This document shows, one piece after another, positions 1,825-58,989 of a stretch of DNA of 58,989 nt. Numbering within the stretch: position 1 is the first letter of the stretch; each line of letters begins with the position of its first letter. Origin of the DNA: Chloroflexota bacterium (lineage in GTDB: Bacteria > Chloroflexota > Dehalococcoidia > GIF9 > AB-539-J10); contig JBMCVZ010000001.1 in the NCBI GenBank assembly GCA_048621695.1, positions 1-58,989 of the forward strand, in the 5' to 3' direction. The notes under the pieces were generated by a model. The model did no database searches, was not told where the DNA came from, and saw only the letters and a list, made by a program, of their open reading frames with translations. The translations under genes were made by a program, and so were the position numbers.

Positions 1825-2487
1825 TTAGGGCCCCGGCACGCCCTCGGGCAGGCCGGCCTCGTTGTCCTCACCGTTACCCGGTGGCACGCCATCGGGAGGA
1901 CCAGGTACGGAAGGTGTTGGTATTCCACCCAGTATATCTTCCAAGTGCTGCCGTACTTCATCTGCCATGCTGGGTATTTCAGAAGGGTCGACACCCATTT
2001 CCACTAGGGCGGTGACCGCCGCTCCGTGACCTGCTGCCGAAGCATTGATCGCTGCGGCTATGGCTGGCTGGGCTTGTTCTGGCACTTGCTCCCAGACATT
2101 CGCCAGCACTTCCAGGTGTATGGCAGTGGCTGCCGCTACAAGCTCTGCAGTGGTCTGGTTGTCTGTGCCAATCTGCTCCGCAATTTCGGCAATGATAGCG
2201 CCGTACTTGTCCGCGGTTGTGTTTAAGGCCTCTGTAGGTCCTTCTGCGGTCAGAACTTCCATCTCCCATATTCGCCTATCAGCGAAGTCCAGCTCTCGCC
2301 CTACCTTGGCAGCATCGTCTGCCGGCAAATTAAGTATCAGTCCCTCAATAGTCAGTTTTACCGGGTAAAGGGCATCACCAGGCAAACTATCCTGCGAAGC
2401 GTAAGCGGTACCCCCGGCGACAAGGGAAAGAGTCACCAAGATTGCGACAACGATACCCACCTTTTTCATCTTAAATCCTTTCTTCAT
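1825..2487 (-). CDS. Membrane-anchored DUF5667-like protein, paralog of the extracytoplasmic part of the adjacent anti-sigma factor
   Basis: It has an N-terminal TM/signal segment. ASQDSLPGDALYPVKLTIEGL...DFADRRIWEMEVL aligns with ASQGSLPGDTLYPVKAATEQL...GFANRRIVEIEAL of the 2845..4017 product. The C-terminal tail is Pro/Gly-rich. Confidence 0.55.
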   Translation of the reverse strand: MKKGFKMKKVGIVVAILVTLSLVAGGTAYASQDSLPGDALYPVKLTIEGLILNLPADDAAKVGRELDFADRRIWEMEVLTAEGPTEALNTTADKYGAIIAEIAEQIGTDNQTTAELVAAATAIHLEVLANVWEQVPEQAQPAIAAAINASAAGHGAAVTALVEMGVDPSEIPSMADEVRQHLEDILGGIPTPSVPGPPDGVPPGNGEDNEAGLPEGVPGP

Positions 2488-2801
2488 TTTAAACCTCCTT
2501 CGTACATTATTGGATTCATTTAGTTTTTATAACAAAACCATAATATTTACCATAGCAAACCTCCTCGCACGATTCGTTTGTTCTAACGAAACTGGAGCCA
2601 TTTTGTTACAAGCATAGCCTCATCTGACGCTGGGTCTTGGCAACGGGTCCGAACACCGGTCGTTTCGTCAGGGCACATCCACGCACCCGCCATATTCCAT
2701 AGTTCCAATTTGGCTGCCAGCTCCTCCCCCGAGGAGGACAACCTACCGTTCTGGAACCCATCCTCTGTATCACCTCGCAGCAGAGCGCTTTCAACCACGC
2801 C

Positions 2802-2835
2802 GGTGATGTGCCGCGCCACGCCGCGGCACATCACC
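2802..2835. repeat. Perfect 14-bp-stem inverted repeat (hairpin), 10 nt downstream of the anti-sigma gene stop
   Basis: The sequence is GGTGATGTGCCGCG-ccacgc-CGCGGCACATCACC. No U-tract follows on the minus strand, so it may be a stabiliser or terminator-like hairpin rather than a canonical intrinsic terminator. Confidence 0.4.
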
Positions 2836-2844
2836 TTCCTGCCT

Positions 2845-4017
2845 CTAGGGCCCAGGTGTCTCCGGTAATCCTGGTAGTTCCGGTAGTTCAGGAACCTCGA
2901 TACCCATGTCTTCCAATATCTCGACCGCCTCGTCATACCCCCTTATCGATACGTCCATCGCCCCTTCTATGGCTAGTTTGGCTTCGTCCGGCACCATGTC
3001 CCAGACGTCCGACAGTATGTCCAAGTGTATGAGTGTCGCCGCAGCTACACGCTCTGCCACCTCGGCTACGTCTTTGTCTAATTCCCGCGCAATTCCGGAA
3101 ATCTCTTCACCCGACTCTGCCATCGCCACGAACTGCTGCACGGCATTCTCCGCCTCTTCAATATCGCCCTCTTCGGCCATTGTCCGGGCCCTGTTCAACC
3201 TTTCTTCCCTGGCTTCCAAATTAATCTTTATAGCCGTCGCCGGCTCTTCCCAGGCCAGGGTCAATAGCGCACTCTCCTGTCCCATCAAGGACACCTCTCC
3301 TGCCCGCGTTATGGCCGCCTTTGCCTCCTCAGGTACTACGTCGCTCACCGCATCCAGCGCCGCAAGGTGCTTCGCTGTCGCCTCAGCCACCAACTCCGAT
3401 ACCTCCGCCGTGGACAGCCCTTTGCCTCTTGCTTCCTCTATGCTGTCCAGTGTCACACCCAAAGCATGGTCATATTTGTCCACAGCCAGATCCAGTTGCA
3501 CCGAACGCCCTGCTTCAACCAGGGCTTCAATCTCTACTATTCGCCTGTTGGCGAACCCCAGGCCCCGTTCCGCCCGGCCAACGTCGTCGCCCGGCAACCT
3601 CATTAGCAGTTGCTCGGTAGCGGCCTTCACCGGGTAAAGAGTGTCACCGGGCAGACTGCCCTGTGAAGCGTAGATCGTACCCCCGGCCAGGGCTAACAGG
3701 GCCAGTGCGATTGCGACAATCATACGCGCCATACTGAACCTACTTCTCTGCGGTATCTGATTGTTATAGCGAAACGATGGCCATCTTGTTACAGCCTGCC
3801 TCTCATGAATCTGCTCCATAAGCTGGTGCCGAGACCTTACCTTAAAGCCGGGAGAGGGATTGACATCTGGTGGTTCTTGAATTGCAAGAGCAATCCTCAG
3901 TAGCGGTTCCAATTGCTCACGCGCAGCTGGGTACCTCTCCAGACAGTCCTCGATGCTGGACCTGCCCGTCTTGATATCCTCGACACACTGTACAAGTATG
4001 TCTTCAAATTTTTTCAA
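2845..4017 (-). CDS. Anti-sigma factor (cytoplasmic N-domain, one TM, DUF5667-like helical ectodomain)
   Basis: It overlaps the upstream ECF sigma gene by 4 nt (ATGA). The N-terminus ILVQCVEDIKTGRSSIEDCLERYPAAREQLEPLL is typical of sigma-binding domains of this family. A TM segment (MARMIVAIALALLALAGG) is followed by the SLPGDxLYPVK motif. Confidence 0.6.
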   Translation of the reverse strand: MKKFEDILVQCVEDIKTGRSSIEDCLERYPAAREQLEPLLRIALAIQEPPDVNPSPGFKVRSRHQLMEQIHERQAVTRWPSFRYNNQIPQRSRFSMARMIVAIALALLALAGGTIYASQGSLPGDTLYPVKAATEQLLMRLPGDDVGRAERGLGFANRRIVEIEALVEAGRSVQLDLAVDKYDHALGVTLDSIEEARGKGLSTAEVSELVAEATAKHLAALDAVSDVVPEEAKAAITRAGEVSLMGQESALLTLAWEEPATAIKINLEAREERLNRARTMAEEGDIEEAENAVQQFVAMAESGEEISGIARELDKDVAEVAERVAAATLIHLDILSDVWDMVPDEAKLAIEGAMDVSIRGYDEAVEILEDMGIEVPELPELPGLPETPGP

Positions 4018-4586
4018 ATCTGTTGCACCTCCTTTTCCACGATTTTTCGGAGTTTGACCAGTGCCCGGTGCAAAATGACCCTGATATTCCCCTCTTTTTT
4101 GTTCAACAGAGAGGCAATTTCAGCGAACTCAAAACCCTCGATAAAACGCAGAATGACCACCTGTTGCTCGTCGCCCCGTAGCTGAAGAATTGCCCTCCGC
4201 AAACGCTGCTGCTCGAAACTGGCTTCAGCTGCATGCTCCGGGTTAGATGCTGGATCGCTAGCCAGAACTTCAACTTCGAGGTATGTCTTGTCTTTCTTGG
4301 TCCGGTAAAAATCTACCACCAGGTTGTGGCTGATGGTCATCAGCCAGGCAACGAATGGAGTTGCCTTTCTTTTGTACCTGTCAATTGCCTGCCATGCCTT
4401 AAAGAATACCTGCTGGGTCAGGTCTTCAGCGTCCTGTTCATTGCCTACCCGGTAATAAATGTGTCTATATACCCTATCGACATGCATGTCATACAGCCTC
4501 CCGAAAGCCTCAGCATCATGACCAATAGCTCTCTGGACCAATACGCCTTCATTTGATGTTGGTTCTTCAGAATAGTTCTGATTCAC
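4014..4586 (-). CDS. ECF (sigma-70 family group 4) RNA polymerase sigma factor
   Basis: Region 2 reads FGRLYDMHVDRVYRHIYYRVGNEQDAEDLTQQVFFKAW. Region 4 is an HTH (FEFAEIASLLNKKEGNIRVILHRALVKLR). The size is 190 aa. Confidence 0.85.
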   Translation of the reverse strand: MNQNYSEEPTSNEGVLVQRAIGHDAEAFGRLYDMHVDRVYRHIYYRVGNEQDAEDLTQQVFFKAWQAIDRYKRKATPFVAWLMTISHNLVVDFYRTKKDKTYLEVEVLASDPASNPEHAAEASFEQQRLRRAILQLRGDEQQVVILRFIEGFEFAEIASLLNKKEGNIRVILHRALVKLRKIVEKEVQQI

Positions 4587-4783
4587 CCCTTCGCCTCTTT
4601 CAACGAATAATCGGCTGAAATGTTACAGAAAGCCTGTTATTCAAGGGTTATTTGTCAGGAGCCTGTAGTAACTATGCCATGCCAGAGAGAGCACAATCAA
4701 GTTTGGAATTGCCACATATCCACTATAGACGATTGTTCAGTCGGGACTACTTATGAAGGCTCGGTAAACCACGGCTGACAACA

Positions 4784-5398
4784 TCATTTTACTTTCTTCT
4801 GTTGCCTGTCGTATATCATATCCTTGATTATGCCTTTGGACAGGATCTGTTTAATATCAGACAGATTACGAACCAGCATGAAAAGGTCGATAACCAGTAC
4901 ATAACGTACCAGCGGTAACGAGCCTTCAAACAACCAGGCAAACAGAGGCAACAGGCCAAATCCGATGAATAGAGCTGACATGAATTTACGGGTAGTAAAG
5001 AACGGAATGGCTATTATTGCCAGCGTAACAAGTATTGCCTCGGGGGCCAGCACGAAAAAAATACCCATAATGGTGGCTGAACCCCTGCCACCCTTGAAAC
5101 CTGCGAATACAGGAAAATTATGTCCTACCAGAGCGGCAAAACCAGTCCCTAAGGCCCAGAACTCCGAAAGGTTCAGAGCCTGGGCAATGAGTATAGCCCC
5201 CGCCCCCTTTGCGACATCAATGATAGCGACAAAAATACCTTCATGAGTACCAATTTGGCGCATGACATTAGCGGCGCCCATGTTGCCTGAACCGATGTTC
5301 CGAATATCTATGCCTTTCCTCGTCCGGGATACGATATAGGCTGTAGGAATAGAGCCTAAAAGATATCCGATGATTATGCTTGGAATACCTGGCAGCAT
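4784..5398 (-). CDS. plsY: Glycerol-3-phosphate acyltransferase PlsY
   Basis: The GSGNMGAANVMR and GHNFPVFAGFKGGRG motifs are present. The protein is polytopic and about 200 aa. Confidence 0.9.
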   Translation of the reverse strand: MLPGIPSIIIGYLLGSIPTAYIVSRTRKGIDIRNIGSGNMGAANVMRQIGTHEGIFVAIIDVAKGAGAILIAQALNLSEFWALGTGFAALVGHNFPVFAGFKGGRGSATIMGIFFVLAPEAILVTLAIIAIPFFTTRKFMSALFIGFGLLPLFAWLFEGSLPLVRYVLVIDLFMLVRNLSDIKQILSKGIIKDMIYDRQQKKVK

Positions 5399-5410
5399 GT
5401 CCTCACCCAG

Positions 5411-6286
5411 CTAAGTGGCGGATTGTCTGTCTCCAAACACACTAACAACGATGAGTCCAGGCCCTGTGTGTGTGCCGATAACAGGACTTGTACGCGAGAG
5501 GTAAATAGGAACTTGAGGATACTTCGCTTGAAGCCTCTGTATCAACCTGTTGGCCTCATCTAAGTCCGTGGCATACTCGACAGCTAACCCTTGGACGTTG
5601 CCGAAGCTTGTGACAAGGTTGTACAGGTGGTCTATCGCTTTAGCTCGGGAACGCTCTCGACCTAAAGGATACACCTCACCATCCTTCAGGCCGATGATTG
5701 GGTTTACCTTGAGTAATGAACCGAGAAAGGCTTGCGCTTTACCGATGCGTCCACCGCGTTCCAGATATTCAAGTGTATCGAAGGCAGCATACATATCTAC
5801 CCGGTGAATGGCTTGACGGGTCACATCCAGCACTTCATCAAGGCTAGCCCCACTTAGGGCTGATTTGGCGGCGGCAATTGCTATGAAACCCTGTGCCATA
5901 ACCGCCCATTGCGAGTCCAGGACCTCCACACGACATGGCTTCTTTGTTGACTCTGTGGCTTGCAACGCCGCCTGATAGGTAGCACTGAGCTTGGAACTCA
6001 AAGTGATAACCAGGATCTCCTTTGTTTTTTCGGCAAGTTTATTATATGCATCGGCAAAAGCTGCTGGTGGCGGCACAGATGTCGCAGGCAAAGCCTTGCT
6101 AGTCCTTAGTTTTTCGTAGAACTGGTCAGGACTCAGGTCGAGACCATCGCGATAGGCGTCGGTGCCAAAGCGGACAACAAGCGGAACCACTGTAATACCG
6201 AACTCCTCAGCCACCTGAGGGGGGAGGTCAGCAACACTATCAGTCACAATGGCTACATTAGGCACAGTAACTATCCTTTCCTCCAC
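5411..6286 (-). CDS. DegV family fatty-acid-binding protein
   Basis: It shows the VAIVTDSVADLP start, 291 aa length and overall DegV pattern. It sits 12 nt upstream of plsY, a lipid-metabolism pairing. Confidence 0.85.
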   Translation of the reverse strand: MEERIVTVPNVAIVTDSVADLPPQVAEEFGITVVPLVVRFGTDAYRDGLDLSPDQFYEKLRTSKALPATSVPPPAAFADAYNKLAEKTKEILVITLSSKLSATYQAALQATESTKKPCRVEVLDSQWAVMAQGFIAIAAAKSALSGASLDEVLDVTRQAIHRVDMYAAFDTLEYLERGGRIGKAQAFLGSLLKVNPIIGLKDGEVYPLGRERSRAKAIDHLYNLVTSFGNVQGLAVEYATDLDEANRLIQRLQAKYPQVPIYLSRTSPVIGTHTGPGLIVVSVFGDRQSAT

Positions 6287-6444
6287 GAGATGCGCCCGAC
6301 AATATCATTTTGCGGCCCCATGGGATTGAAATAGTCCGGCTCATCTGTAGATGCGGTACGGGTTGCTCGTAAACCACGGGAGGAAATAACACCACATCGT
6401 GGTGCGCTGCCAGGTTCAGAGGAGTCATTGGTCCAGCTATGATA

Positions 6445-6675
6445 TTATCTCCAGTCAGTTAGTTCGGCCTTTACCAGCATACTTCCCAGCGCAACTAACC
6501 AAAGTGATGAGGTGATTGCCAAGCCTAAAATCCACCAGCTCAATGTATTCTGCTGCTGGATATCGCCCATAATCATCATGGATAATAAATAAAGAAAGCC
6601 AATCCCAGCCGCTACTAACATAGAATGTGACACTACGCGCCATCCCTTTCGTGTTAGAAGCTTATTTAATATCAT
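6445..6675 (-). CDS. Small two-TM membrane protein, hypothetical
   Basis: There are two hydrophobic helices, and AAGGAGAG sits 4-5 nt upstream of the ATG. I recognise no family. Confidence 0.4.
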   Translation of the reverse strand: MILNKLLTRKGWRVVSHSMLVAAGIGFLYLLSMMIMGDIQQQNTLSWWILGLAITSSLWLVALGSMLVKAELTDWR

Positions 6676-6916
6676 CGCTCTCTCCTTCGCCTTCTATTGG
6701 TATTATACCCCACAGAGAATATCCTGAGAAGTAGGGAGAAACTTAGCTGGCATTAAAAGGTTGGTAAGTGCGGTCAAGCCTATCTTTCTCAACACTACAT
6801 TCTGCTGTCATTACTAGGACTGGGATTGCTGCATTCGCTCGCAAGGACGAAATCGACTTTATCGGCTCATAATAAGCCCCGCTTCCCAAATGGCTGTCGA
6901 TTGAGGTTTGGTTTTC

Positions 6917-7495
6917 TTACGATTTTAGGCGGTTAAGGTGACCTTGTAAAACTGAGCGGTAGCTTTGGTAAGTCCGGGAATCGAAGAGAACAAACACGAC
7001 ATCTTTGAGAGATGTCGCTTGCTTCTTAAGAAACGAAACGACGGTGCTTACCGCTATTTTTGCCGCTTCATCCACGGGATAGCCATAGGCGCCGGTGCTT
7101 ATGGAAGGGAAGGAGATGCTGGTCAACTTATTCTCGGTAGCCAATTTCAGGCACTCGGAATAAGCGCTCTCCAAAATCTCAGCTTCATTTCTGCCGCCAC
7201 CGTGCCAGACGGGACCAACGGTATGTATCACATAGCGGGCCTTGAGATTCCCTCCTGTGGTAATTACAGCTTTGCCTGTGGGCAATCTTCCTTGCTGGGC
7301 AACGATTTTCTTGCATTCCTCTAGTATTGCTGGCCCTCCAGCCCGGTGTATTGCCCCATCCACCCCTCCGCCACCCATTAAGCTGGAGTTGGCAGCATTA
7401 ACGATGGCATCGCTAGCTTGCTTGGTGATATCTCCCTGGATGACAGAAACCTTTGTTTTATTGACCGTCAATTCCATGGAACGGCGCACCTCCAT
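6917..7495 (-). CDS. Macro-domain protein (O-acetyl-ADP-ribose deacetylase / ADP-ribose binding, YmdB-like)
   Basis: The motifs are VIQGDITKQASDAIVNAANSSLMGGGGVDGAIHRAGGP and ISFPSISTGAYGYP. An alternative start at 7477 (MELTV) has a GGAGG upstream. Confidence 0.85.
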   Translation of the reverse strand: MEVRRSMELTVNKTKVSVIQGDITKQASDAIVNAANSSLMGGGGVDGAIHRAGGPAILEECKKIVAQQGRLPTGKAVITTGGNLKARYVIHTVGPVWHGGGRNEAEILESAYSECLKLATENKLTSISFPSISTGAYGYPVDEAAKIAVSTVVSFLKKQATSLKDVVFVLFDSRTYQSYRSVLQGHLNRLKS

Positions 7496-7678
7496 TTCTT
7501 ATCGAGGCTGTTAATTTTGATTCCCCGTAATTTGCGGGCATAGTGGTTTTCATCAGCACAAGCTTTTGAAGCCATGCAGGGCGGCATTTTTCATGCCGCC
7601 TCTTTCTGGCGCGGAATAAATTCCCGCCATACAAGGTTATACAAACACTCCTTGCTCTGTCGCCTAGAATGCACACGT

Positions 7679-7996
7679 TTAGTCGTGCCGATGAACCACG
7701 CCCACTATCTTCTCCACAGGAAGCACGAAAGCTACCCCGGTTCCCGGCTTGTCCAGTTCGCCGGCGTTGACGATTGCTTCAAGGATAGCATCTTTCTTGT
7801 CTGCATAGGTTATCGACAACACAATCTCCCTCTCTGGTTCGATGATGATTCCCAGAAATTTCTGTCTCTCGTGGACCCCCACTCCGCGACCCAGTATGAC
7901 GGTACCCCCTTCTGCCCCGGCCTGGCAGGAGGCCTCAAGGACTCTGTCGCCCCAGCCATTTCTGACAATGCTTACAATGAGAGCTATTTCCGCCAT
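7679..7996 (-). CDS. PII-like (GlnB superfamily) small regulatory protein, non-canonical
   Basis: It is 105 aa with a beta-alpha-beta pattern (IVSIVRNGWGDRVLEASCQAGAEGGTVILGRG...GVAFVLPVEKIVG). It begins 2 nt after the stop of the upstream DUF1538 gene. Confidence 0.65.
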   Translation of the reverse strand: MAEIALIVSIVRNGWGDRVLEASCQAGAEGGTVILGRGVGVHERQKFLGIIIEPEREIVLSITYADKKDAILEAIVNAGELDKPGTGVAFVLPVEKIVGVVHRHD

Positions 7997-7998
7997 AT

Positions 7999-8733
7999 TT
8001 ATTCCTCCTTTCTGCGTAGTTTAATGCGAACTATCAGTCCGAGCACCATAATGGTCAAGATAGGCGCCAGGGCTATTAAAGCTATTAGGCCAAAACCATC
8101 TATAATCGGGTCGCGTCCTTCAATTGCAGAGGCAATGCCGACAGCTATCGCCATAAGGAAGGTTACCGCCATCGGGCCGGTAGCTACACCACCGGCATCA
8201 AAGGCGATGGCGATGACACTCTTTTCGCTGAACCGGAGCATGCCTATAGCCAGCAGGTAACCGGGTATAATAATCCAGAGCAATGGAATCCCGTACACAA
8301 TTCTTGCCATCCCCAGGGCAACAAACAAGGCGACGCCGGAGGATATCGTATAGAGAACAATATTCTTGCGTATAGAGCCGGCTGAAGCCTCTTCAATCTG
8401 GTCGCCGAGTATGCGTACGGCAGGCTCCCCCCAGGTGGCCAGAAAACCCATCATGAGACCGAACGGTATTAAGGGCCATTGTACCCTGATAGCACCCAGA
8501 ATTTCACCCATGGACTGGCCGGCCGGGAAAAAGCCGATGCTCACACCCTGCAAGAACAGGGACAATCCTACTACGGCCAGTAGAGTTCCTTTAAGGAGAT
8601 TAAATACGTAGCTCCTTGGCAGCTTCAATACCAGAAACTGGAATATAATGAACAAGACCAGCAGCGGCAGCAAAGCCTTTATGACACTCAAAAAGATATG
8701 CCCGATTCCATCCCAGAGCATTAGCTCATTCAA
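7999..8733 (-). CDS. DUF1538 family polytopic membrane protein (copy 2)
   Basis: It has about 6-7 TM segments. It shares FDAGGVATGPMAVTF / FDSGGVTTGPMAVP and GFGLIAL motifs with the upstream paralog. The two genes overlap by 4 nt. Confidence 0.65.
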   Translation of the reverse strand: MNELMLWDGIGHIFLSVIKALLPLLVLFIIFQFLVLKLPRSYVFNLLKGTLLAVVGLSLFLQGVSIGFFPAGQSMGEILGAIRVQWPLIPFGLMMGFLATWGEPAVRILGDQIEEASAGSIRKNIVLYTISSGVALFVALGMARIVYGIPLLWIIIPGYLLAIGMLRFSEKSVIAIAFDAGGVATGPMAVTFLMAIAVGIASAIEGRDPIIDGFGLIALIALAPILTIMVLGLIVRIKLRRKEE

Positions 8734-9425
8734 TGCAGCACCATCCCCAGGACCATGACCCCGATTATAGGCCCGATTGAGGCCAGCCCGATTAAGCCGA
8801 AGCCGTCTGACAGGGCAGACCTTCCCGCCAGCACTGAGCTAAATCCCAGTCCCAGTGCCAGGATTATGGGCACCGCCATTGGCCCGGTGGTGACACCGCC
8901 TGAGTCAAAGGCCACCGGGACAAATTCAGCGGGAGTGAAGAAAGCCAGGATTAAGACGATAATATAGCCGGCTGCCAGCAGATACGCGATAGGAAAATTG
9001 AGTAGAATGCGGAGCATCGCCATGGCAACAAAGAAACCGACACCGATAGCGATGACGCCAATCAGAATATTCTCGGCAATAGCCCCCCGGGAGACCACAT
9101 CCACCTGCCCGGTCAGGACGATGACATCAGGCTCGGCGACTGTCGCGGCAAAGCCGATGAGAAAAGCAATCCCTATTATCAGGAATAGTGACTTCCGCTT
9201 GGGGAGTTCGGCACCGAGAGCTTTGCCCATCGTCAGGATTCCGATTTCAACTCCGACCAGAAAGAGTATCATGCCTGCGATAACCATTAGTGCCCCTATG
9301 ATGAACTGGAGAAAAAGGCGAGAGGGCATTTTAATAATGGCAAACTGGAGAATGACTACTGTCAGAACCAGCGGCAAAATCGCCGTGATAACTTCCAGCA
9401 CCCTGGCTTTAATATGGTTTCGCAT
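8730..9425 (-). CDS. DUF1538 family polytopic membrane protein (copy 1)
   Basis: It is a paralog of 7999..8733 with the same TM layout and the motifs TVAEPDV, FDSGGVTTGPMAVP and DGFGLIGLAS. Confidence 0.65.
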   Translation of the reverse strand: MRNHIKARVLEVITAILPLVLTVVILQFAIIKMPSRLFLQFIIGALMVIAGMILFLVGVEIGILTMGKALGAELPKRKSLFLIIGIAFLIGFAATVAEPDVIVLTGQVDVVSRGAIAENILIGVIAIGVGFFVAMAMLRILLNFPIAYLLAAGYIIVLILAFFTPAEFVPVAFDSGGVTTGPMAVPIILALGLGFSSVLAGRSALSDGFGLIGLASIGPIIGVMVLGMVLH

Positions 9426-9628
9426 AATTAATTATACCAAGGGTGTCAGTAACACCGAAAGAGCAAAGAGAGGTAGGTAAAGTGCCTGGTCAGGGTTGCT
9501 GTCTCGCGCCCCGGGTCTAGAGAAGAGATGTAAGGGAATTCCTAACTCAATAGCTAGAATTTCGTCCACAGCTTTATGATAATCAAGATGAAGGTCAAAT
9601 GTCAGAGCTTAAAAAGAAGGGAAAGTGC

Positions 9629-10717
9629 CTAGACGTTAAACAAGAAGGTAACTACGTCTCCATCCTGGATGATGTAATTTTTGCCTTCTGTCCTCAGCAG
9701 CCCTCTTTTTCGCGCCTCGGCTACATTGCCGCAGCTTTCCATATCACTGTAGCTGATAACCTCAGCTCGGATAAATCCCCTTTCCATATCGGAATGAATC
9801 TTTCCTGCCGCTTTCGGCGCTGGAGTTCCGCCGGGGATAGTCCAGGCCTTTAGCTCCGAGGAAACTGTGGTGAAGAAAGAAATCAGCCCCAAAAGACTAT
9901 AGGAAAGGTCGATAACCCGGTCGAGTGCTGGTTTACTCAGCCCCATAGCTTCACGGAATTCCTTGGCTTCAGTGTCGCTGAGCTGAGCTAGCTCCATCTC
10001 CAGCTTGCCGCAGAGGGCGACCACGGCAAACTGGGGGTAAAGGGAACTTATTTCGCCTTCCAATTGTGAAGCCTGTGATATTTGCTCCTCTCCTATATTA
10101 AGGACTACCAGCATGGGTTTGGCGGTAAGAAATTGATAGTTGGATAACATTTTGAGTTCTTCTTTAGCCAGGCCTTGTAGTCTTATTGGTATATCTTTCT
10201 CTAACTCCGTCTTCACCTTTTGAAGCAGAAGTTGCTCCTTTAAATAGGACTCCCGCTCTGCTGCTTTAGCTCCTTTCAAACTTGTCTCCAGTTTGTCAAG
10301 CCTTCTCTCCATAATAGCTAAATCGGAAATGGCGAGTTCTAAATCTAGGGAAGCTATGTCTCGTTTCGGCTCTATGCTCCCTTCAGGATGGGGAACCTTG
10401 TCATCTTCAAAAGCCCGGACTACCTGGAGCAGGGCATCAGCGGTAGTTAGATAGCTCAAGAATTCTCCCCCCGGTCCTTCTTTACCGAAGCCCTTGAGGG
10501 AACCGGCAATATCTGTGTAACTCACCTCTGCGGGAACAGTCTTTTTGGGCTGGAATATGCCTTCCAGCACTGATAATCGGGAATCGGGGACTTTAGCCAC
10601 GCCGGTATTGGGAGCCAGGGTAGGGGAATAAGCGGCAACTTCAGCCCTGCCTCTGGTCAGGGCATTAAAGATAGTCGTTTTGCCGCTCTTGGGTATGCCG
10701 ATAATGGCAACCTTCAT
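9629..10717 (-). CDS. ychF: Ribosome-binding ATPase YchF
   Basis: It has the P-loop GIPKSGKTTIFNALT, a coiled-coil insert, and the C-terminal TGS-like end EGKNYIIQDGDVVTFLFNV. The length is 362 aa. Confidence 0.9.
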   Translation of the reverse strand: MKVAIIGIPKSGKTTIFNALTRGRAEVAAYSPTLAPNTGVAKVPDSRLSVLEGIFQPKKTVPAEVSYTDIAGSLKGFGKEGPGGEFLSYLTTADALLQVVRAFEDDKVPHPEGSIEPKRDIASLDLELAISDLAIMERRLDKLETSLKGAKAAERESYLKEQLLLQKVKTELEKDIPIRLQGLAKEELKMLSNYQFLTAKPMLVVLNIGEEQISQASQLEGEISSLYPQFAVVALCGKLEMELAQLSDTEAKEFREAMGLSKPALDRVIDLSYSLLGLISFFTTVSSELKAWTIPGGTPAPKAAGKIHSDMERGFIRAEVISYSDMESCGNVAEARKRGLLRTEGKNYIIQDGDVVTFLFNV

Positions 10718-55086: not shown

Positions 55087-55135
55087 CCCCTTTAATTTTG
55101 AGGCGTGAAGGAATCCCCTCCTTCACGATCATAGG

Positions 55136-55173
55136 AAATTCTAAATACTAATTTCTAAGCTCTAAACAAATCC
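55136..55173. repeat. Family D low-complexity unit (second copy)
   Basis: AAATTCTAAATACTAATTTCTAAGCTCTAAACAAATCC matches 20515-20552 at 34 of 38 positions. Confidence 0.75.
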
Positions 55174-55973
55174 CTTCAAAATGCAAAGATAAAAGTGCAA
55201 AATGACAGAGCAACAGTAAATAGAAAATTGAAATGCAAGAAGCAAAGACAGTGGTAGTAAAAAGAATCCAGAATCCGGTAGCCACCGGGGAAATTTTTTT
55301 AAACGCCGAATTCTGGCTACTAACTACCAGTTTCTAAATTTTCCGGCAGGACTATTTGGCTATTTTCTACTTTATTCAACCGTACTCATTTTGCCTTTGG
55401 ACCCGGGCTGGAAATCCCTTTTCCTAGGACTTGGGGGCTATAGCAGGAAAACCTTTTGAATTTTGACTACTGACTGCTGGTTTCCCGCTTTGGTACTTTT
55501 TGGTGATAGACAGGCTGTAGAGCTTCTATTAACATTTTAATAGGTGTACAAACCTCCCCCTCTTAAGATAGGAGGGGTCAGGTCCCAACTTTGTCGAGAA
55601 TGCTCGATAAAATCGGCCGGAGTTACGAATTCCCCTCTTAAGGTAAGAGGGGTTAGGGGAGTTATGAATTCGTGAAGGAATACTTTCCTTACAGGATAAC
55701 CAGTCTAGGGAGTAACAAATTGGAGAAGGACGGAAAACGCCTCCAGAATCAAGTCGTAACTCTTAAAACGGCAATCGAGGAGGCGATAAGCAAGGGGCAA
55801 AAATCCATGGACGGCCTTAGCGATATTTCAAGGTCCAGGCTGGTTTCCAATAAGGATGTTGTCCTCACCCACATGAACGCAGGTTCGGAGGTTGTCGGCT
55901 AGGTCGACGGCTTTTTGAGCTTACGCCCAGTATTCCTCCCTTACGTCGGAATAGGCTCCGCAATCGCCTTGTT

Positions 55974-56069
55974 GTCATTGCGAGGAGTCCCGATGAATCG
56001 GGACGACGTGGCAATCTCACCTTATAGTTCTCTCTCCCCTGGCGGGAGAGAGTTAGAGTGAGGGGGATT
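55974..56069. repeat. Family A unit (55974-56018) followed by family C unit (56031-56069)
   Basis: GTCATTGCGAGGAGTCCCGATGAATCGGGACGACGTGGCAATCTC is close to the reverse complement of 11122-11165. TCTCTCCCCTGGCGGGAGAGAGTTAGAGTGAGGGGGATT is close to 12226-12264. Confidence 0.8.
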
Positions 56070-56181
56070 TCGTTTGTCATTTGGATTTTGACATTTGAGT
56101 CTTTTCAGTCTTTGCATTTTAACTTGTCATTTTTGTTTTTTGTCTTTGATTTTTAATATCGTTCAGGATTTGATATCACCT

Positions 56182-56230
56182 ATCTCTAATCTCTAATTCC
56201 TAATTCCTGCCTCCTGACTACTGTCTACTA
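56182..56230. repeat. Heptamer-periodic low-complexity tract
   Basis: The tract reads ATCTCTA-ATCTCTA-ATTCCTA-ATTCCTG-CCTCCTG-ACTACTG-TCTACTA. It contains the CTGACTA word complementary to the cdhC-cdhE spacer heptamer. Confidence 0.65.
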
Positions 56231-56596
56231 GTTTTCTGAACGTGCTTATCGAGCCGCAGAGGTAGCGGCTGCCTATTAAGCAGCGGGCCGCTGGTTCGGA
56301 TCTCTCCAGGGACGCCACTAAGTCAGGCAAAGGAACCGCTTTTCTAGGTAACCGACAACTCAGGTAACAATCTGACGAAGTGTTTATGAGCGAACTTTTT
56401 TGACTTCCACAATCCAATATGTGAGGGCAAGAAAACCTTCACAGCATAGTTTATATCCCGAGTAATTCTCCTCTGGGTCTAACGGACGAGCGCATTTATT
56501 CGCGTATAGGTTTCCCATTCACCGCCTAAGTTCAGCTTACATTGTTAGCCTGCTATATTAAACTTGCATAATTCACTATATATTTACAGTACCTAC

Positions 56597-56625
56597 TTGA
56601 CAAATGACTAACCATGTGTTATACT
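56597..56625 (+). promoter_or_regulatory. Near-consensus sigma-70 promoter for the island genes
   Basis: The sequence is TTGACA-17 nt-TATACT, followed by AGGAGG (56641-56646) and the ATG at 56654. Confidence 0.5.
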
Positions 56626-56653
56626 TACATTAGTATGTTCAGGAGGTATCAAC

Positions 56654-57328
56654 ATGGTTACTATATCAAGCCTTCCGCAGATATTAACTCCAGACGAGAT
56701 AGCCGATTATCTGAAAGTAAGTTCCAATGCTGTTCTGAAAGAATTGGAGGGTGGATACCTGAGAGGATTTAAAATAGGCTCAGAGTGGCGTTGCACTGAT
56801 GTGGCGTTGCTAGATTATATAGGAAAGAACGTAAACTCGTTATTGATTAATAGGGGAGCTTCAAAAGAACTTGAATGTGAGCCAACCAGCTTCACGGAAA
56901 TTGGAGAATTCGACTACCAGTGGCCTCTTGCGAGTGAGCATTTTGAAAATGGATATGAAACCACATGTAAAATTAACGGTCGTACATATACATTCAAAAT
57001 TGGCTTTACTGATCGAAAAGCAGCAGGGCAAATGCGCCGTCGCGTTGTGGTATGGATAGATAACTGGCCTTTGGTCGAATTTGCTGGAAGCAATAACTAC
57101 GAATCTGATGGGTTACTTGCCAGCGTTATTAAGGTTGAAGGCGGAAAGCAGCTTCGCCCATCAGGAAAAATGCCTGATGAATATAAAGATTTTCATATTG
57201 CAAAGTATGATTCCATAGTGCAAGGGCCATATGCCAGCCGAAACTTGGCGGTCATAGTGTCAAAAGATGACCTGGAATCAATGCTTCATCATGCAATCAT
57301 TAGAGCGAAATTGAAGAACCGCATATGA
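56654..57328 (+). CDS. Excisionase-family (MerR-like) HTH protein with an uncharacterised ~150-aa C-terminal domain
   Basis: The N-terminus LTPDEIADYLKVSSNAVLKELEGGYLRGFKIGSEWRCTDVALLDYI follows the excisionase/HTH_17 pattern. I do not recognise the remainder. Confidence 0.6.
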   Translation: MVTISSLPQILTPDEIADYLKVSSNAVLKELEGGYLRGFKIGSEWRCTDVALLDYIGKNVNSLLINRGASKELECEPTSFTEIGEFDYQWPLASEHFENGYETTCKINGRTYTFKIGFTDRKAAGQMRRRVVVWIDNWPLVEFAGSNNYESDGLLASVIKVEGGKQLRPSGKMPDEYKDFHIAKYDSIVQGPYASRNLAVIVSKDDLESMLHHAIIRAKLKNRI

Positions 57329-57396
57329 TCCGTATAGAAAATTAATGATTGCACGTATCGTGAAGTTGACGAAAAAGAGATTTTGAGGGAGAAGCC

Positions 57397-58011
57397 ATGG
57401 AAAATGAATTATCCAATATGGATATAGCGTTATTTGCTCTCTATAAAAAGGGGGGTGTTTCTCAGAAAGTTCACACGGAAGAGGTCGCGTGGGAAGCATA
57501 CCAACTCGCAAAAGAAAGATTCTCGTGGAGATTGCTAAAATTCAGACAAATGGGATTTCCGGATAAAACGCCGGTACGCTTTGCTTTAGAACAGGCGAAA
57601 AAGAAAGAAAATGGCAAGCTTGTTTCTGGTAGATCAGGCGGTGATGCTGGTGGAGAACTAGAAGGTTGGTGTTTTACTTCGCAGGGAGCAATTTGGATTA
57701 AAGAAAATGAAACGCGTATCTCAGAAAATTTAAAGCAAAAAGTACCAAATGTACCCAAACGCGAAGCAGAACGATTTATAAAGAAAATAAAAATCGATGC
57801 CTTCTTTAGATACTTTCAAGAAAAAGGGAATTTGGACGAGGCGTCGCAATATATGTTTACTGATATGTTAGTTTGCGCTCCAGATGCATCTAAAAAAATT
57901 ATAAGGCAGAAATTCGAACAATTGTATTCTAATGCCGAATTAGTTAATGATTTAGAAATACTGGATTTTCTAGGGGCATGTAAGGGAAAATTTAACGATT
58001 TAGTCACGTAA
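57397..58011 (+). CDS. Hypothetical protein (possible N-terminal winged-helix)
   Basis: It is a clean ORF with a GAGGGAG RBS and a Lys/Glu-rich composition like its neighbours. No family is recognised. Confidence 0.45.
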   Translation: MENELSNMDIALFALYKKGGVSQKVHTEEVAWEAYQLAKERFSWRLLKFRQMGFPDKTPVRFALEQAKKKENGKLVSGRSGGDAGGELEGWCFTSQGAIWIKENETRISENLKQKVPNVPKREAERFIKKIKIDAFFRYFQEKGNLDEASQYMFTDMLVCAPDASKKIIRQKFEQLYSNAELVNDLEILDFLGACKGKFNDLVT

Positions 58012-58028
58012 CCAAAAGGAGGCTGAAA

Positions 58029-58955
58029 ATGAAGTTGGGTGTTCCTATCGATGTTAAGATTACAACAAGGCATTTTGCTTTCAGTAGGCAGTTTGCTATT
58101 AGAGATGTTTATGATGCGCTTGTTGAATTAATAACCAATTCAGATGACAGTTATCACCGGTTATATAAAAAACAGCTTAGAGGTGACGATGGAGGGCCTA
58201 TTTTAATCGAGATTTGTGAACAGAGGAAAGGAGAATCTTCTTCAATAATCATCTATGATAAGGCTGAGGGAATGACATTAGAGACCATGAGTGAAAAATT
58301 CGGTGATGTTGGTAGTCGCCGCAGCGAAGAAGGTGATAGAGGATTCATGGGTAGAGGTGCTAAGGATTGTACTGAGTTGGGTGGAATGATTATTGAATCT
58401 ATAAAAGAGGGGAAATATTATAAATGTGAATTGACTACTAAGCCTCAGTTTATCCCTTGGGAAAATGCTAGAAGTGTTAACAAAGAAATGAGAGAGAGAT
58501 TAGGTATTGAGCGAGGAAATGGTACAGTAATTAGATTACAAATCGAGGCACAACATAGAATTCCACATGTGGCAACGATAATGCGGGATTTACCATGGCA
58601 TTATGCATTAAGAGATATTTTGTCTGAATATAGCCCAACTAAGCTTTTGATTAGAAATTCAAATGACCCGAGGATGAAACCAGAGAAAATTGTATATAGG
58701 CAACCTGTGGCAGAATTGGTATGTGATGAAAGTTTTATAGTCCCGAGTTATCCGCAAGCAAAAGCAAAACTTAAGATTTGGAGAGCCAAGGAACCATTTG
58801 AGGATCCGAGTGAGCGTTTCAGACGATCTGGTTTATTGATCAAAAGTGAGAGAGCAATTCATGAATGCAGCCTTCTTTATTCCGGGTTGGAAAAAGAGCC
58901 TTATGCAAAAAGATATTTTGGAAGATTAGAATGCTATTGGACTGCACCCCTATGA
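58029..58955 (+). CDS. GHKL-superfamily (Hsp90/MORC/HATPase_c_3-like) ATPase
   Basis: The N-box is DALVELITNSDDSY, the G1 box is IIYDKAEGMT, and the G2-like motif is RGFMGRGAKD. An AGGAGG RBS is present. The stop lies only 34 nt before the window end, and 308 aa is short for this family. Confidence 0.6.
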   Translation: MKLGVPIDVKITTRHFAFSRQFAIRDVYDALVELITNSDDSYHRLYKKQLRGDDGGPILIEICEQRKGESSSIIIYDKAEGMTLETMSEKFGDVGSRRSEEGDRGFMGRGAKDCTELGGMIIESIKEGKYYKCELTTKPQFIPWENARSVNKEMRERLGIERGNGTVIRLQIEAQHRIPHVATIMRDLPWHYALRDILSEYSPTKLLIRNSNDPRMKPEKIVYRQPVAELVCDESFIVPSYPQAKAKLKIWRAKEPFEDPSERFRRSGLLIKSERAIHECSLLYSGLEKEPYAKRYFGRLECYWTAPL

Positions 58956-58989
58956 CTGGACAGATAAGGTTAGGAGAGGCTGGCGGGGT

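Follow-up and report, generated by a model that had tools for sequence, protein, structure and literature searches.

GHKL/MORC-type ATPases are emerging as immune engines in organisms ranging from bacteria to plants and animals. To our knowledge, most of the bacterial branches predicted in 2008 have never been named or tested. Prokaryotic MORC and paraMORC1-5 are GHKL+S5 ATPases of predicted restriction-modification (R-M) operons (Iyer, Abhiman & Aravind 2008, PMC2292703). Single-protein GHKL defenses have also been described, namely Tiamat (TmtA), a GHKL/GHL protein with DUF3684 and a C-terminal PD-(D/E)xK domain (bioRxiv 10.64898/2026.09.30.754977), and VcSduA, a GHKL-Shedu (type I-D) protein with a C-terminal DUF4263 nuclease (PMC12137116). 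In this study, we analyzed the whole contig C1 (58,989 nt, JBMCVZ010000001.1; hereafter, the window) of a 750-kb metagenome-assembled genome (MAG) of a Dehalococcoidia bacterium that is 58% complete. The right end of the window carries a cassette of three genes (56367-58989), the last of which encodes a GHKL ATPase. We found that the cassette is a discrete, horizontally mobile, accessory and self-contained operon, and that the copy in the window was probably inactivated recently. It is probably a restriction-like defense module, and it matches no known defense system.

Among known systems, the cassette comes closest to the MORC/paraMORC radiation, the GHKL+S5 ATPases of predicted R-M operons (PMC2292703). 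The cassette ATPase shares with these proteins an N-terminal GHKL domain, a transducer/S5-type domain and a family-specific C-terminal extension, as well as a patchy distribution with lateral mobility, a link to DNA methylases in some cases and a proposed role as an ATP-driven engine that loops or clamps DNA. However, the cassette lacks a conserved partner of the SFII helicase, HNH, Vsr or restriction-endonuclease-fold type. Its obligate partner is a 205-aa winged-helix protein (204 aa in the window), and the C-terminus of its ATPase consists of a coiled coil, Ig-like domains and a helical end. Its matches to HATPase_c_3 were below the cut-off, and the comparison with the paraMORC families was by description only. 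The hallmark MORC/paraMORC neighborhood, an SFII helicase and/or endonuclease together with a DNA methylase, was not a conserved feature in a census of 149 neighbors around the ATPase family. Tiamat and VcSduA resemble the cassette ATPase in that an N-terminal GHKL/GHL ATPase is part of a large defense protein and is thought to control a DNA-directed activity; the cassette ATPase differs from both in having a separate partner gene. Tiamat was rejected as an identity, as the full-length relatives had no DUF3684 in Pfam and no PADLOC match, and Shedu type I-D was rejected as Pfam scans of the same relatives detected no DUF4263.

Anatomy and mobility of the cassette

An initial annotation, made from the sequence of the window, had described a low-GC segment of three same-strand genes with its own promoter and strong ribosome-binding sites (RBSs), and this description held. 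The GC content was 39.4% in 56380-58989 versus 48.1% in the backbone reference (window 1-55086), the second lowest value among 282 sliding windows of 2.6 kb, and the segment has three open reading frames (ORFs) on the + strand. The GC content at third codon positions (GC3) was 0.30-0.38 in the cassette genes versus 0.52 in tsaD. The promoter TTGACA-17-TATACT lies at 56597-56625 (-35 at 56597-56602, -10 at 56620-56625), matches at 11 of 12 positions and has a TG extension; promoter-like sites were no more numerous than in shuffled sequence. The RBSs ahead of the three genes are AGGAGG, GAGGGAG and AAGGAGG. All three genes were under purifying selection (dN/dS 0.07-0.27), which suggests that they are functional. 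The features are listed in Table 1.

Table 1. Features of the cassette in the window, and regions of the full-length ATPase in the L008 structure model
Feature	Position (window nt, or L008 residues)	Strand	Basis or remark
Left junction zone	55939..56366	.	Same-genus alignments stop at 55938; genus-wide dispersed repeats within
Cassette leader: promoter and RBS	56367..56653	+	L106 homology from 56367, L104 homology from 56242; promoter scan
Gene 1: HTH_17 (residues 11-58) and ~150-aa domain without known family, 224 aa	56654..57328	+	ORF, Pfam, homologue alignment
Gene 2 ("O2"): winged helix (N-terminal) and helical domain (C-terminal), 204 aa	57397..58011	+	AF2; ATPase linkage
Gene 3: first 303 codons, GHKL ATPase and most of transducer domain	58029..58937	+	Intact L104 copy = 753 aa
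IS3-family element end: terminal TGGACTGCACCC and last 12 transposase codons (PRQPLLTLSVQS*)	58938..58989	-	49/52 nt = G066:C12:917-968
L008 model: GHKL and transducer domain	residues to ~310		
L008 model: conserved loop NPxLIIDPNRxxGLxRDHPF	after transducer, before coiled coil		
L008 model: two-helix coiled coil	residues 350-407		
L008 model: flexible linker	between coiled coil and all-beta region		
L008 model: all-beta region	residues 427-665		Resembles Ig-like/Big_2 domains of phage tail proteins
L008 model: helical end	residues 669-757		Invariant R651, W654, H668, Y674 and E695 listed with this region

The same cassette was found at 96.7% nucleotide identity (window 56242-58938) in L104, a 77.6-kb ENA contig from another uncultured Dehalococcoidia, where the ATPase is intact (753 aa). 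At that site fumarase genes precede the cassette, whereas an HD/HD_assoc gene and a ParE toxin pair come after it; the GC content of the cassette is again 39%, with flanks of 48-51%. Other versions occupy other sites, in L106/L107 at 85.5% identity and in L129 at 81%, near uvrB. The DNA common to the copies runs from ~290 nt upstream of gene 1 to ~10 nt beyond the ATPase stop, ~3.9 kb in all. The shared unit is exactly the promoter and the three genes, with no integrase travelling along.

The ATPase had no match by protein search in 36 same-genus genomes, and the partner and ATPase genes had none by DNA search in 40 same-genus genomes. Synteny between the window and same-genus genomes, comprising a CBS-domain gene, a transporter, tsaD and a conserved 76-aa ORF, stops at 55938. 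Past this point the relatives differ: G063 and G004 carry DUF2851 and groES/EL, and G001 carries Abi_2, an HsdR_N-like gene and an Eco57I-type enzyme. These results indicate that the cassette is accessory and horizontally acquired, as had been proposed, and that the site downstream of tsaD is a variable defense hot spot. The exact cassette boundaries, the second insertion site at 96.7% identity and the IS3 disruption described below are new here.

Disruption of the ATPase gene by a predicted IS3-family element

The ATPase ORF had been noted as short for its family. As read, it spans 58029-58955 on the + strand, encodes 308 aa and stops 34 nt before the contig end; intact homologues have 750-770 aa when their ORFs are read to full length. 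The window protein tracks its homologues to ...YFGRLECY (codon 303, Y303) and next reads WTAPL-stop. As far as Y303 it is 99% identical in amino acids to the intact L104 copy, and after that residue it is divergent. Homology to the intact copy ends at 58937/8, and the final 52 nt of the contig, which start at 58938, do not belong to the ATPase gene. The 308-aa ORF is therefore made of 303 native codons and 5 codons read out of the inserted insertion sequence (IS) end.

We then identified the foreign tail by comparison with same-genus genomes. It equals G066:C12:917-968 at 49 of 52 positions, and the element end TGGnnTGCnCCCCTATGA... also borders copies in G065, G016, G018 and G020. The full-length element in G065 (L113) encodes OrfA with HTH_Tnp_1 and OrfB with HTH_21 and rve, ending in ...PRQTLPTLSVQS. 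On its minus strand the window tail codes PRQPLLTLSVQS, i.e. a transposase C-terminus running into the element end. Membership in the IS3 family is indicated by the terminal TG, which adjoins an OrfA (HTH_Tnp_1)/OrfB (rve) transposase laid out as in the same-genus full copy, with just 52 nt of the element lying on the contig, which ends before the other end and any target-site duplication. As judged from the sequence, an IS3-family element is lodged between codons 303 and 304, antisense to the ATPase gene, and the assembly breaks in the repeat. The gene is cut at 40% of its length. Because the C-terminal 60% of the ATPase is lost, the copy in the window is most likely dead. The insertion is recent, since the surviving part is 99% identical in protein to the intact copy. 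The module is thus incomplete, as had been stated; the cause is not the window edge only, as had been assumed, and lies in the insertion at codon 303/304. For this genome the message is a smaller one, namely that its copy is IS-broken and probably inert.

Alternatively, the truncation could be artefactual or be confined to a minority variant; the organism would then have an intact gene, and the IS end would have been joined to it at a repeat boundary of the assembly graph. The contig stops only 52 nt into the repeat, as is typical of graph tips, and in this partial MAG the remainder of the ATPase gene was found on no other contig; the expected right flank (DUF2851, groES/EL) and further copies of the IS end were likewise not found elsewhere in the MAG. 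The IS junction is known at the level of the assembly. However, the junction coincides exactly with the conserved element end TGG... that is also seen in four other copies, and an overlap of 52 nt requires reads spanning the step from codon 303 into the IS end. In an Omnitrophica MAG, too, an rve transposase cuts a homologue. We consider an artefact improbable, and retain an IS insertion as the explanation of the truncation.

The ATPase and its partner form a widespread pair

Relatives of the ATPase were sought across one genome per species and were found on 244 stretches, and the family occurs in more than 15 phyla. The best 80 of the 244 stretches come from Thermodesulfobacteriota, Dadabacteria, Nitrospirota, Planctomycetota, Acidobacteriota, Chloroflexota, Patescibacteria, Bacillota, Bacteroidota, Bathyarchaeia and others. 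Identity between the ATPase and a Thermodesulfobacteriota copy is 79%, and members of the pair from different phyla share as much as 79-80%. The 204-aa partner immediately precedes the ATPase in at least 50 of the 67 loci with enough flank to be counted; the loci that depart from this arrangement belong to the most divergent branches. In 17 of 48 loci the pair is preceded by a ~75-aa helical protein (c0), and elsewhere this position is held by various genes, among them RHH/wHTH proteins, a PIN toxin and an N6_N4 methylase. At 50% identity, the partner family falls into 1436 clusters when E <= 1e-3 is required and into 957 when E <= 1e-10 is. These results describe an ATPase-partner family that is widespread, under purifying selection and moving between phyla.

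Apart from HTH_17 in gene 1, the cassette proteins and their full-length relatives gave nothing above threshold in Pfam, NCBIfam, PHROGs and PADLOC. PADLOC-DB v2 had no match at E <= 0.1 for the three window proteins or the full-length ATPase relatives. HATPase_c_3 (PF13589) reached 20.5 bits with the window protein and 15-21 bits with the full-length relatives, below its gathering cut-off of 25 bits. The family is missed by current annotation pipelines because it has no Pfam, NCBIfam or PADLOC model. A full-text literature search found no paper on the ATPase family.

In IMG/VR, the pair was present on 3 large viral contigs, and the ATPase alone on 8 giant-virus MAG contigs (L118-L122, L124, L125 and L127), which carry no winged-helix partner. 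Hokovirus and Yasminevirus proteins (BFVD A0A1V0SGC9 and A0A5K0UA26) matched the ATPase model over its full length, with Foldseek E-values of 2.5e-33 and 7e-29. The giant-virus relatives are new here.

Folds and motifs of the ATPase and its partner

Assignment of the third gene to the GHKL ATPases was borne out by both motifs and fold. Residues E33, N37, D77, A79, G81, R104, G105, G110, K112, G165 and T166 were invariant in alignments of 13 and 28 sequences. Motif I (ExxxN), motif II, the glycine-rich lid (G2/III) and motif IV (GT) were all found, motif II being DxAxG instead of DxGxG. Because all ATP-binding motifs are invariant, the intact protein is expected to be an active ATPase. The structure was examined in an AF2 model of L008 (pLDDT 84), the closest intact relative (758 aa). 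In Foldseek, residues 1-~400 of this model matched HtpG/TRAP1, the GyrB 43-kDa fragment and SMCHD1 with E-values of 1e-10 to 1e-8. These were the best structural matches (PDB 1y4s, 4ipe, 3zkd and 6mw7), with identity of only 9-14%, low TM-scores (0.2-0.5) and unrelated C-terminal halves; in addition, the cassette ATPase behaves as part of an accessory cassette and not as a housekeeping gene. These results indicate that the third gene encodes a MORC/paraMORC-like ATPase with GHKL and transducer (S5-like) domains.

The AF2 model of the partner (pLDDT 92, pTM 0.87) contained the winged helix that the initial annotation had considered possible. Its N-terminus resembled PadR/MarR/Rio2-type winged helices with TM-scores of 0.5-0.6 over ~100 residues, at E-values that were not significant, and its C-terminal helical domain had no structural match. 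Sequence profiles of the ATPase C-terminus, the partner, gene 1 and c0 gave chance-level matches only against the PDB.

A shared regulator-like gene heads at least four cassette types

The HTH_17 match in gene 1 (E 2e-6) was just above the Pfam cut-off. The gene-1 family counts more than 155 proteins of 221-231 aa, all of the named ones from Dehalococcoidia. In alignment A5, 29 columns were invariant, and the ~150-aa C-terminal domain was conserved even more than the HTH; dN/dS for gene 1 was 0.10-0.27. We surveyed the family in eleven independent contexts. It heads the partner-ATPase pair in four (the window, L104, L106/107 and L129). In three others (L101 [G004:C3], L130 and L138), it precedes a 916-923-aa protein that is paired with a convergent D12 (Dam-type) methylase; these proteins are HATPase_c_3-like in G004 and L130, below the curated Pfam cut-off, and without a Pfam match in L138. 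A 777-836-aa protein without family, with a convergent N6_N4 methylase, follows in another three (L131, L132 and L137), and in the remaining context (L133) the gene is joined to a methylase fragment. When the window ATPase was compared with the 923-aa and 835-aa proteins of the sister cassettes, only the G1 box aligned, and not significantly. The large proteins of the sister cassettes look like undescribed restriction enzymes.

The -35 region CTTGACAA was invariant across 8 aligned upstream regions of the gene-1 family, which represent four cassette types, and similar words surround it in all 8. The TTGCATAA / TTACA(T/G)(A/T)A words around the -35 are possible operators, and the TTGCATAA / TTACATAA words may be sites at which the gene 1 protein binds. 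Because the family heads methylase-linked cassettes with an invariant promoter, we infer that gene 1 is a controller-type regulator that sets the expression of a potentially toxic downstream gene. Like the controller (C) proteins of Type II R-M systems, it is a small HTH gene at the operon head with its own conserved promoter, and in the sister cassettes its family precedes a large "restriction" gene with the methylase convergent. It differs from C proteins in that its HTH is HTH_17 (MerR/excisionase-like) and not Xre-type, and in that it has 224 aa with a highly conserved extra 150-aa domain. The sister cassettes carry a methylase, and the O2-ATPase cassette of the window carries none.

The gene-1 family was not present in the 80 representative ATPase loci of other phyla, so that the head is specific to this lineage and takes the place of c0 and of the various genes found upstream elsewhere. 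A relationship between c0 and gene 1 was considered and rejected, as the two were unrelated on comparison. Dehalococcoidia have small genomes and few known defenses. The shared regulator head, which is new here as a feature common to four cassette types, offers a handle on the control of toxic restriction-type genes in this class.

The initial annotation had called gene 1 an excisionase-type protein. The HTH stood, and the excisionase assignment did not. According to that view, gene 1 would be an excisionase, and the segment would be the edge of an integrative element whose integrase lies past the contig end. The HTH_17 and excisionase-type matches favor this, and L130, a sister cassette, is located within a mobile element, with a Phage_integrase gene and a D5 primase close by. 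However, excisionases of the Xis/AlpA type have ~60-80 aa and lie beside a cognate integrase, whereas gene 1 has 224 aa with an extra conserved domain and is always at the operon head. No tyrosine integrase (PF00589) was found on the contig, so that the integrase expected to bound the low-GC segment is missing there as well as from the shared unit, and no integrase adjoined the gene-1 family member in 5 of 6 intact contexts. In addition, the DNA shared with L104, L106 and L129 extends only ~10 nt beyond the ATPase stop and is flanked by housekeeping genes. An excisionase is thus very unlikely, and a regulator at the head of restriction-type cassettes is the reading that we carry forward.

A probable role in restricting invading DNA

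We favor, with moderate confidence, the view that the cassette is a mobile operon, present in the window as an IS-inactivated copy, in which a regulator accompanies a winged-helix partner and an ATPase that restrict invading DNA. Gene 1 would be a transcription regulator of the controller type, acting on the conserved promoter that precedes it, and genes 2 and 3 would form a working pair of the winged-helix protein and the 753-aa ATPase. By analogy with GyrB, MutL, Hsp90, MORC and paraMORC, ATP binding would dimerize the GHKL domains and close a clamp, which the coiled coil, Ig-like and helical regions could form or gate. The partner may supply DNA recognition or loading, so that the ATPase would clamp or loop the DNA chosen by the partner and then restrict it when it is invading DNA. 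Lacking a methylase, the cassette is not a classical R-M system, and it would have to recognize foreign DNA by a cue different from host methylation, for example modified bases, topology or free ends.

Several observations link the cassette to restriction, and the link is circumstantial. The gene-1 family heads a large protein with a convergent D12 or N6_N4 methylase in 6 other contexts. In L002, an N6_N4 methylase lies directly upstream of the partner-ATPase pair, fused into the operon, and in the relative G001 the site downstream of tsaD carries Abi and R-M genes. Neighbors of the ATPase family include PIN, Fic, DUF2130, recombinases, methylases and R-M genes. Among the 149 neighbors, which fall into 135 families, N6_N4_Mtase occurred 3 times and N6_Mtase and Eco57I_C 2 times each; no helicase family was among the 25 most frequent families.

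Other observations weigh against a defense function. No cassette component matched a defense model in PADLOC, Pfam or NCBIfam, and no nuclease or other effector fold or motif was recognized in any cassette protein. The giant-virus homologues without the partner indicate that the ATPase can serve outside phage defense. The neighbors were mostly singletons, many of them housekeeping, and the enrichment in defense islands is weak and unquantified. The ATPase family had no match in plasmid or cultured-phage collections. The regulator role of gene 1 is drawn from its position and the conservation of its promoter only, and its large conserved C-terminal domain could do something else.

Some of these points would equally suit a cassette that is mobile and not immune. 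Such a cassette could compact or silence DNA in a MORC-like manner, or could be an addiction or maintenance module for mobile DNA, with the winged-helix partner as loader. The lack of a recognizable nuclease, the SMCHD1- and Hsp90-like folds, which are clamps and not nucleases, the partner-free homologues in giant-virus MAGs and the variable genomic contexts all agree with this. However, the cassette moves by itself, with neither an integrase nor replication genes, it was absent from the plasmid and cultured-phage collections searched, and the gene-1 family otherwise heads methylase-linked, restriction-like cassettes. We regard a function outside immunity as unlikely, although less so than an assembly artefact at the junction. 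The initial annotation had offered a mobile or defense module; mobility is confirmed by the copies at other sites, and we infer defense as the best reading, for which PADLOC has no match.

More tentatively, and at less than even odds in our judgment, the restriction of invading DNA by this operon might represent an undescribed form of immunity that has no recognizable nuclease, works through a MORC-like ATP-driven DNA clamp and has full-length relatives in giant viruses of eukaryotes. In that case, a portable head of regulator and promoter would have been swapped, within Dehalococcoidia, among at least four unrelated restriction-type cassettes, each with a large protein, two of which are demonstrably GHKL-type.

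Other features of the locus and of related loci

The left junction was examined for integration features. Candidates for a tRNA, tmRNA or att site at the left edge were rejected, as ARAGORN and Rfam found none, and tRNA-like words at 56240-56310 fall inside a genus-wide dispersed repeat. Short repeats at 55134-55249, 55973-56089 and 56198-56377 are MITE/REP-like and spread over many contigs of many genus genomes. The 76-aa ORF downstream of tsaD (55672-55902) had no Pfam family; it was found in many same-genus genomes with 82-85% nucleotide identity and conserved synteny.

A shared break point at 308 aa was also considered as a sign of a naturally split gene, and this was rejected, as the break in L136 comes from a 1-nt frameshift and that in L016 from a stop together with a frameshift. 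Family members split by frameshifts or stops near the transducer end or beyond it were seen in L136 (~1150-1180), L016 (~7600-7740) and L002 (~5529-5551), and these splits are either sequencing errors or real decay. In the Omnitrophica MAG (L003 1668-4168), the homologous ATPase is cut to 450 aa by an opposed rve_3 transposase gene, and a second, different HATPase_c_3 gene comes after it.

In L103 (G001:C89), the genes downstream of tsaD (2400-10500) include a Type I S-subunit-like fragment in addition to Abi_2, the HsdR_N-like gene and the Eco57I-type enzyme, which has 1061 aa. In L104, the HD/HD_assoc gene directly downstream of the intact cassette is dGTPase-like and lies with the ParE toxin pair at 6369-8306.

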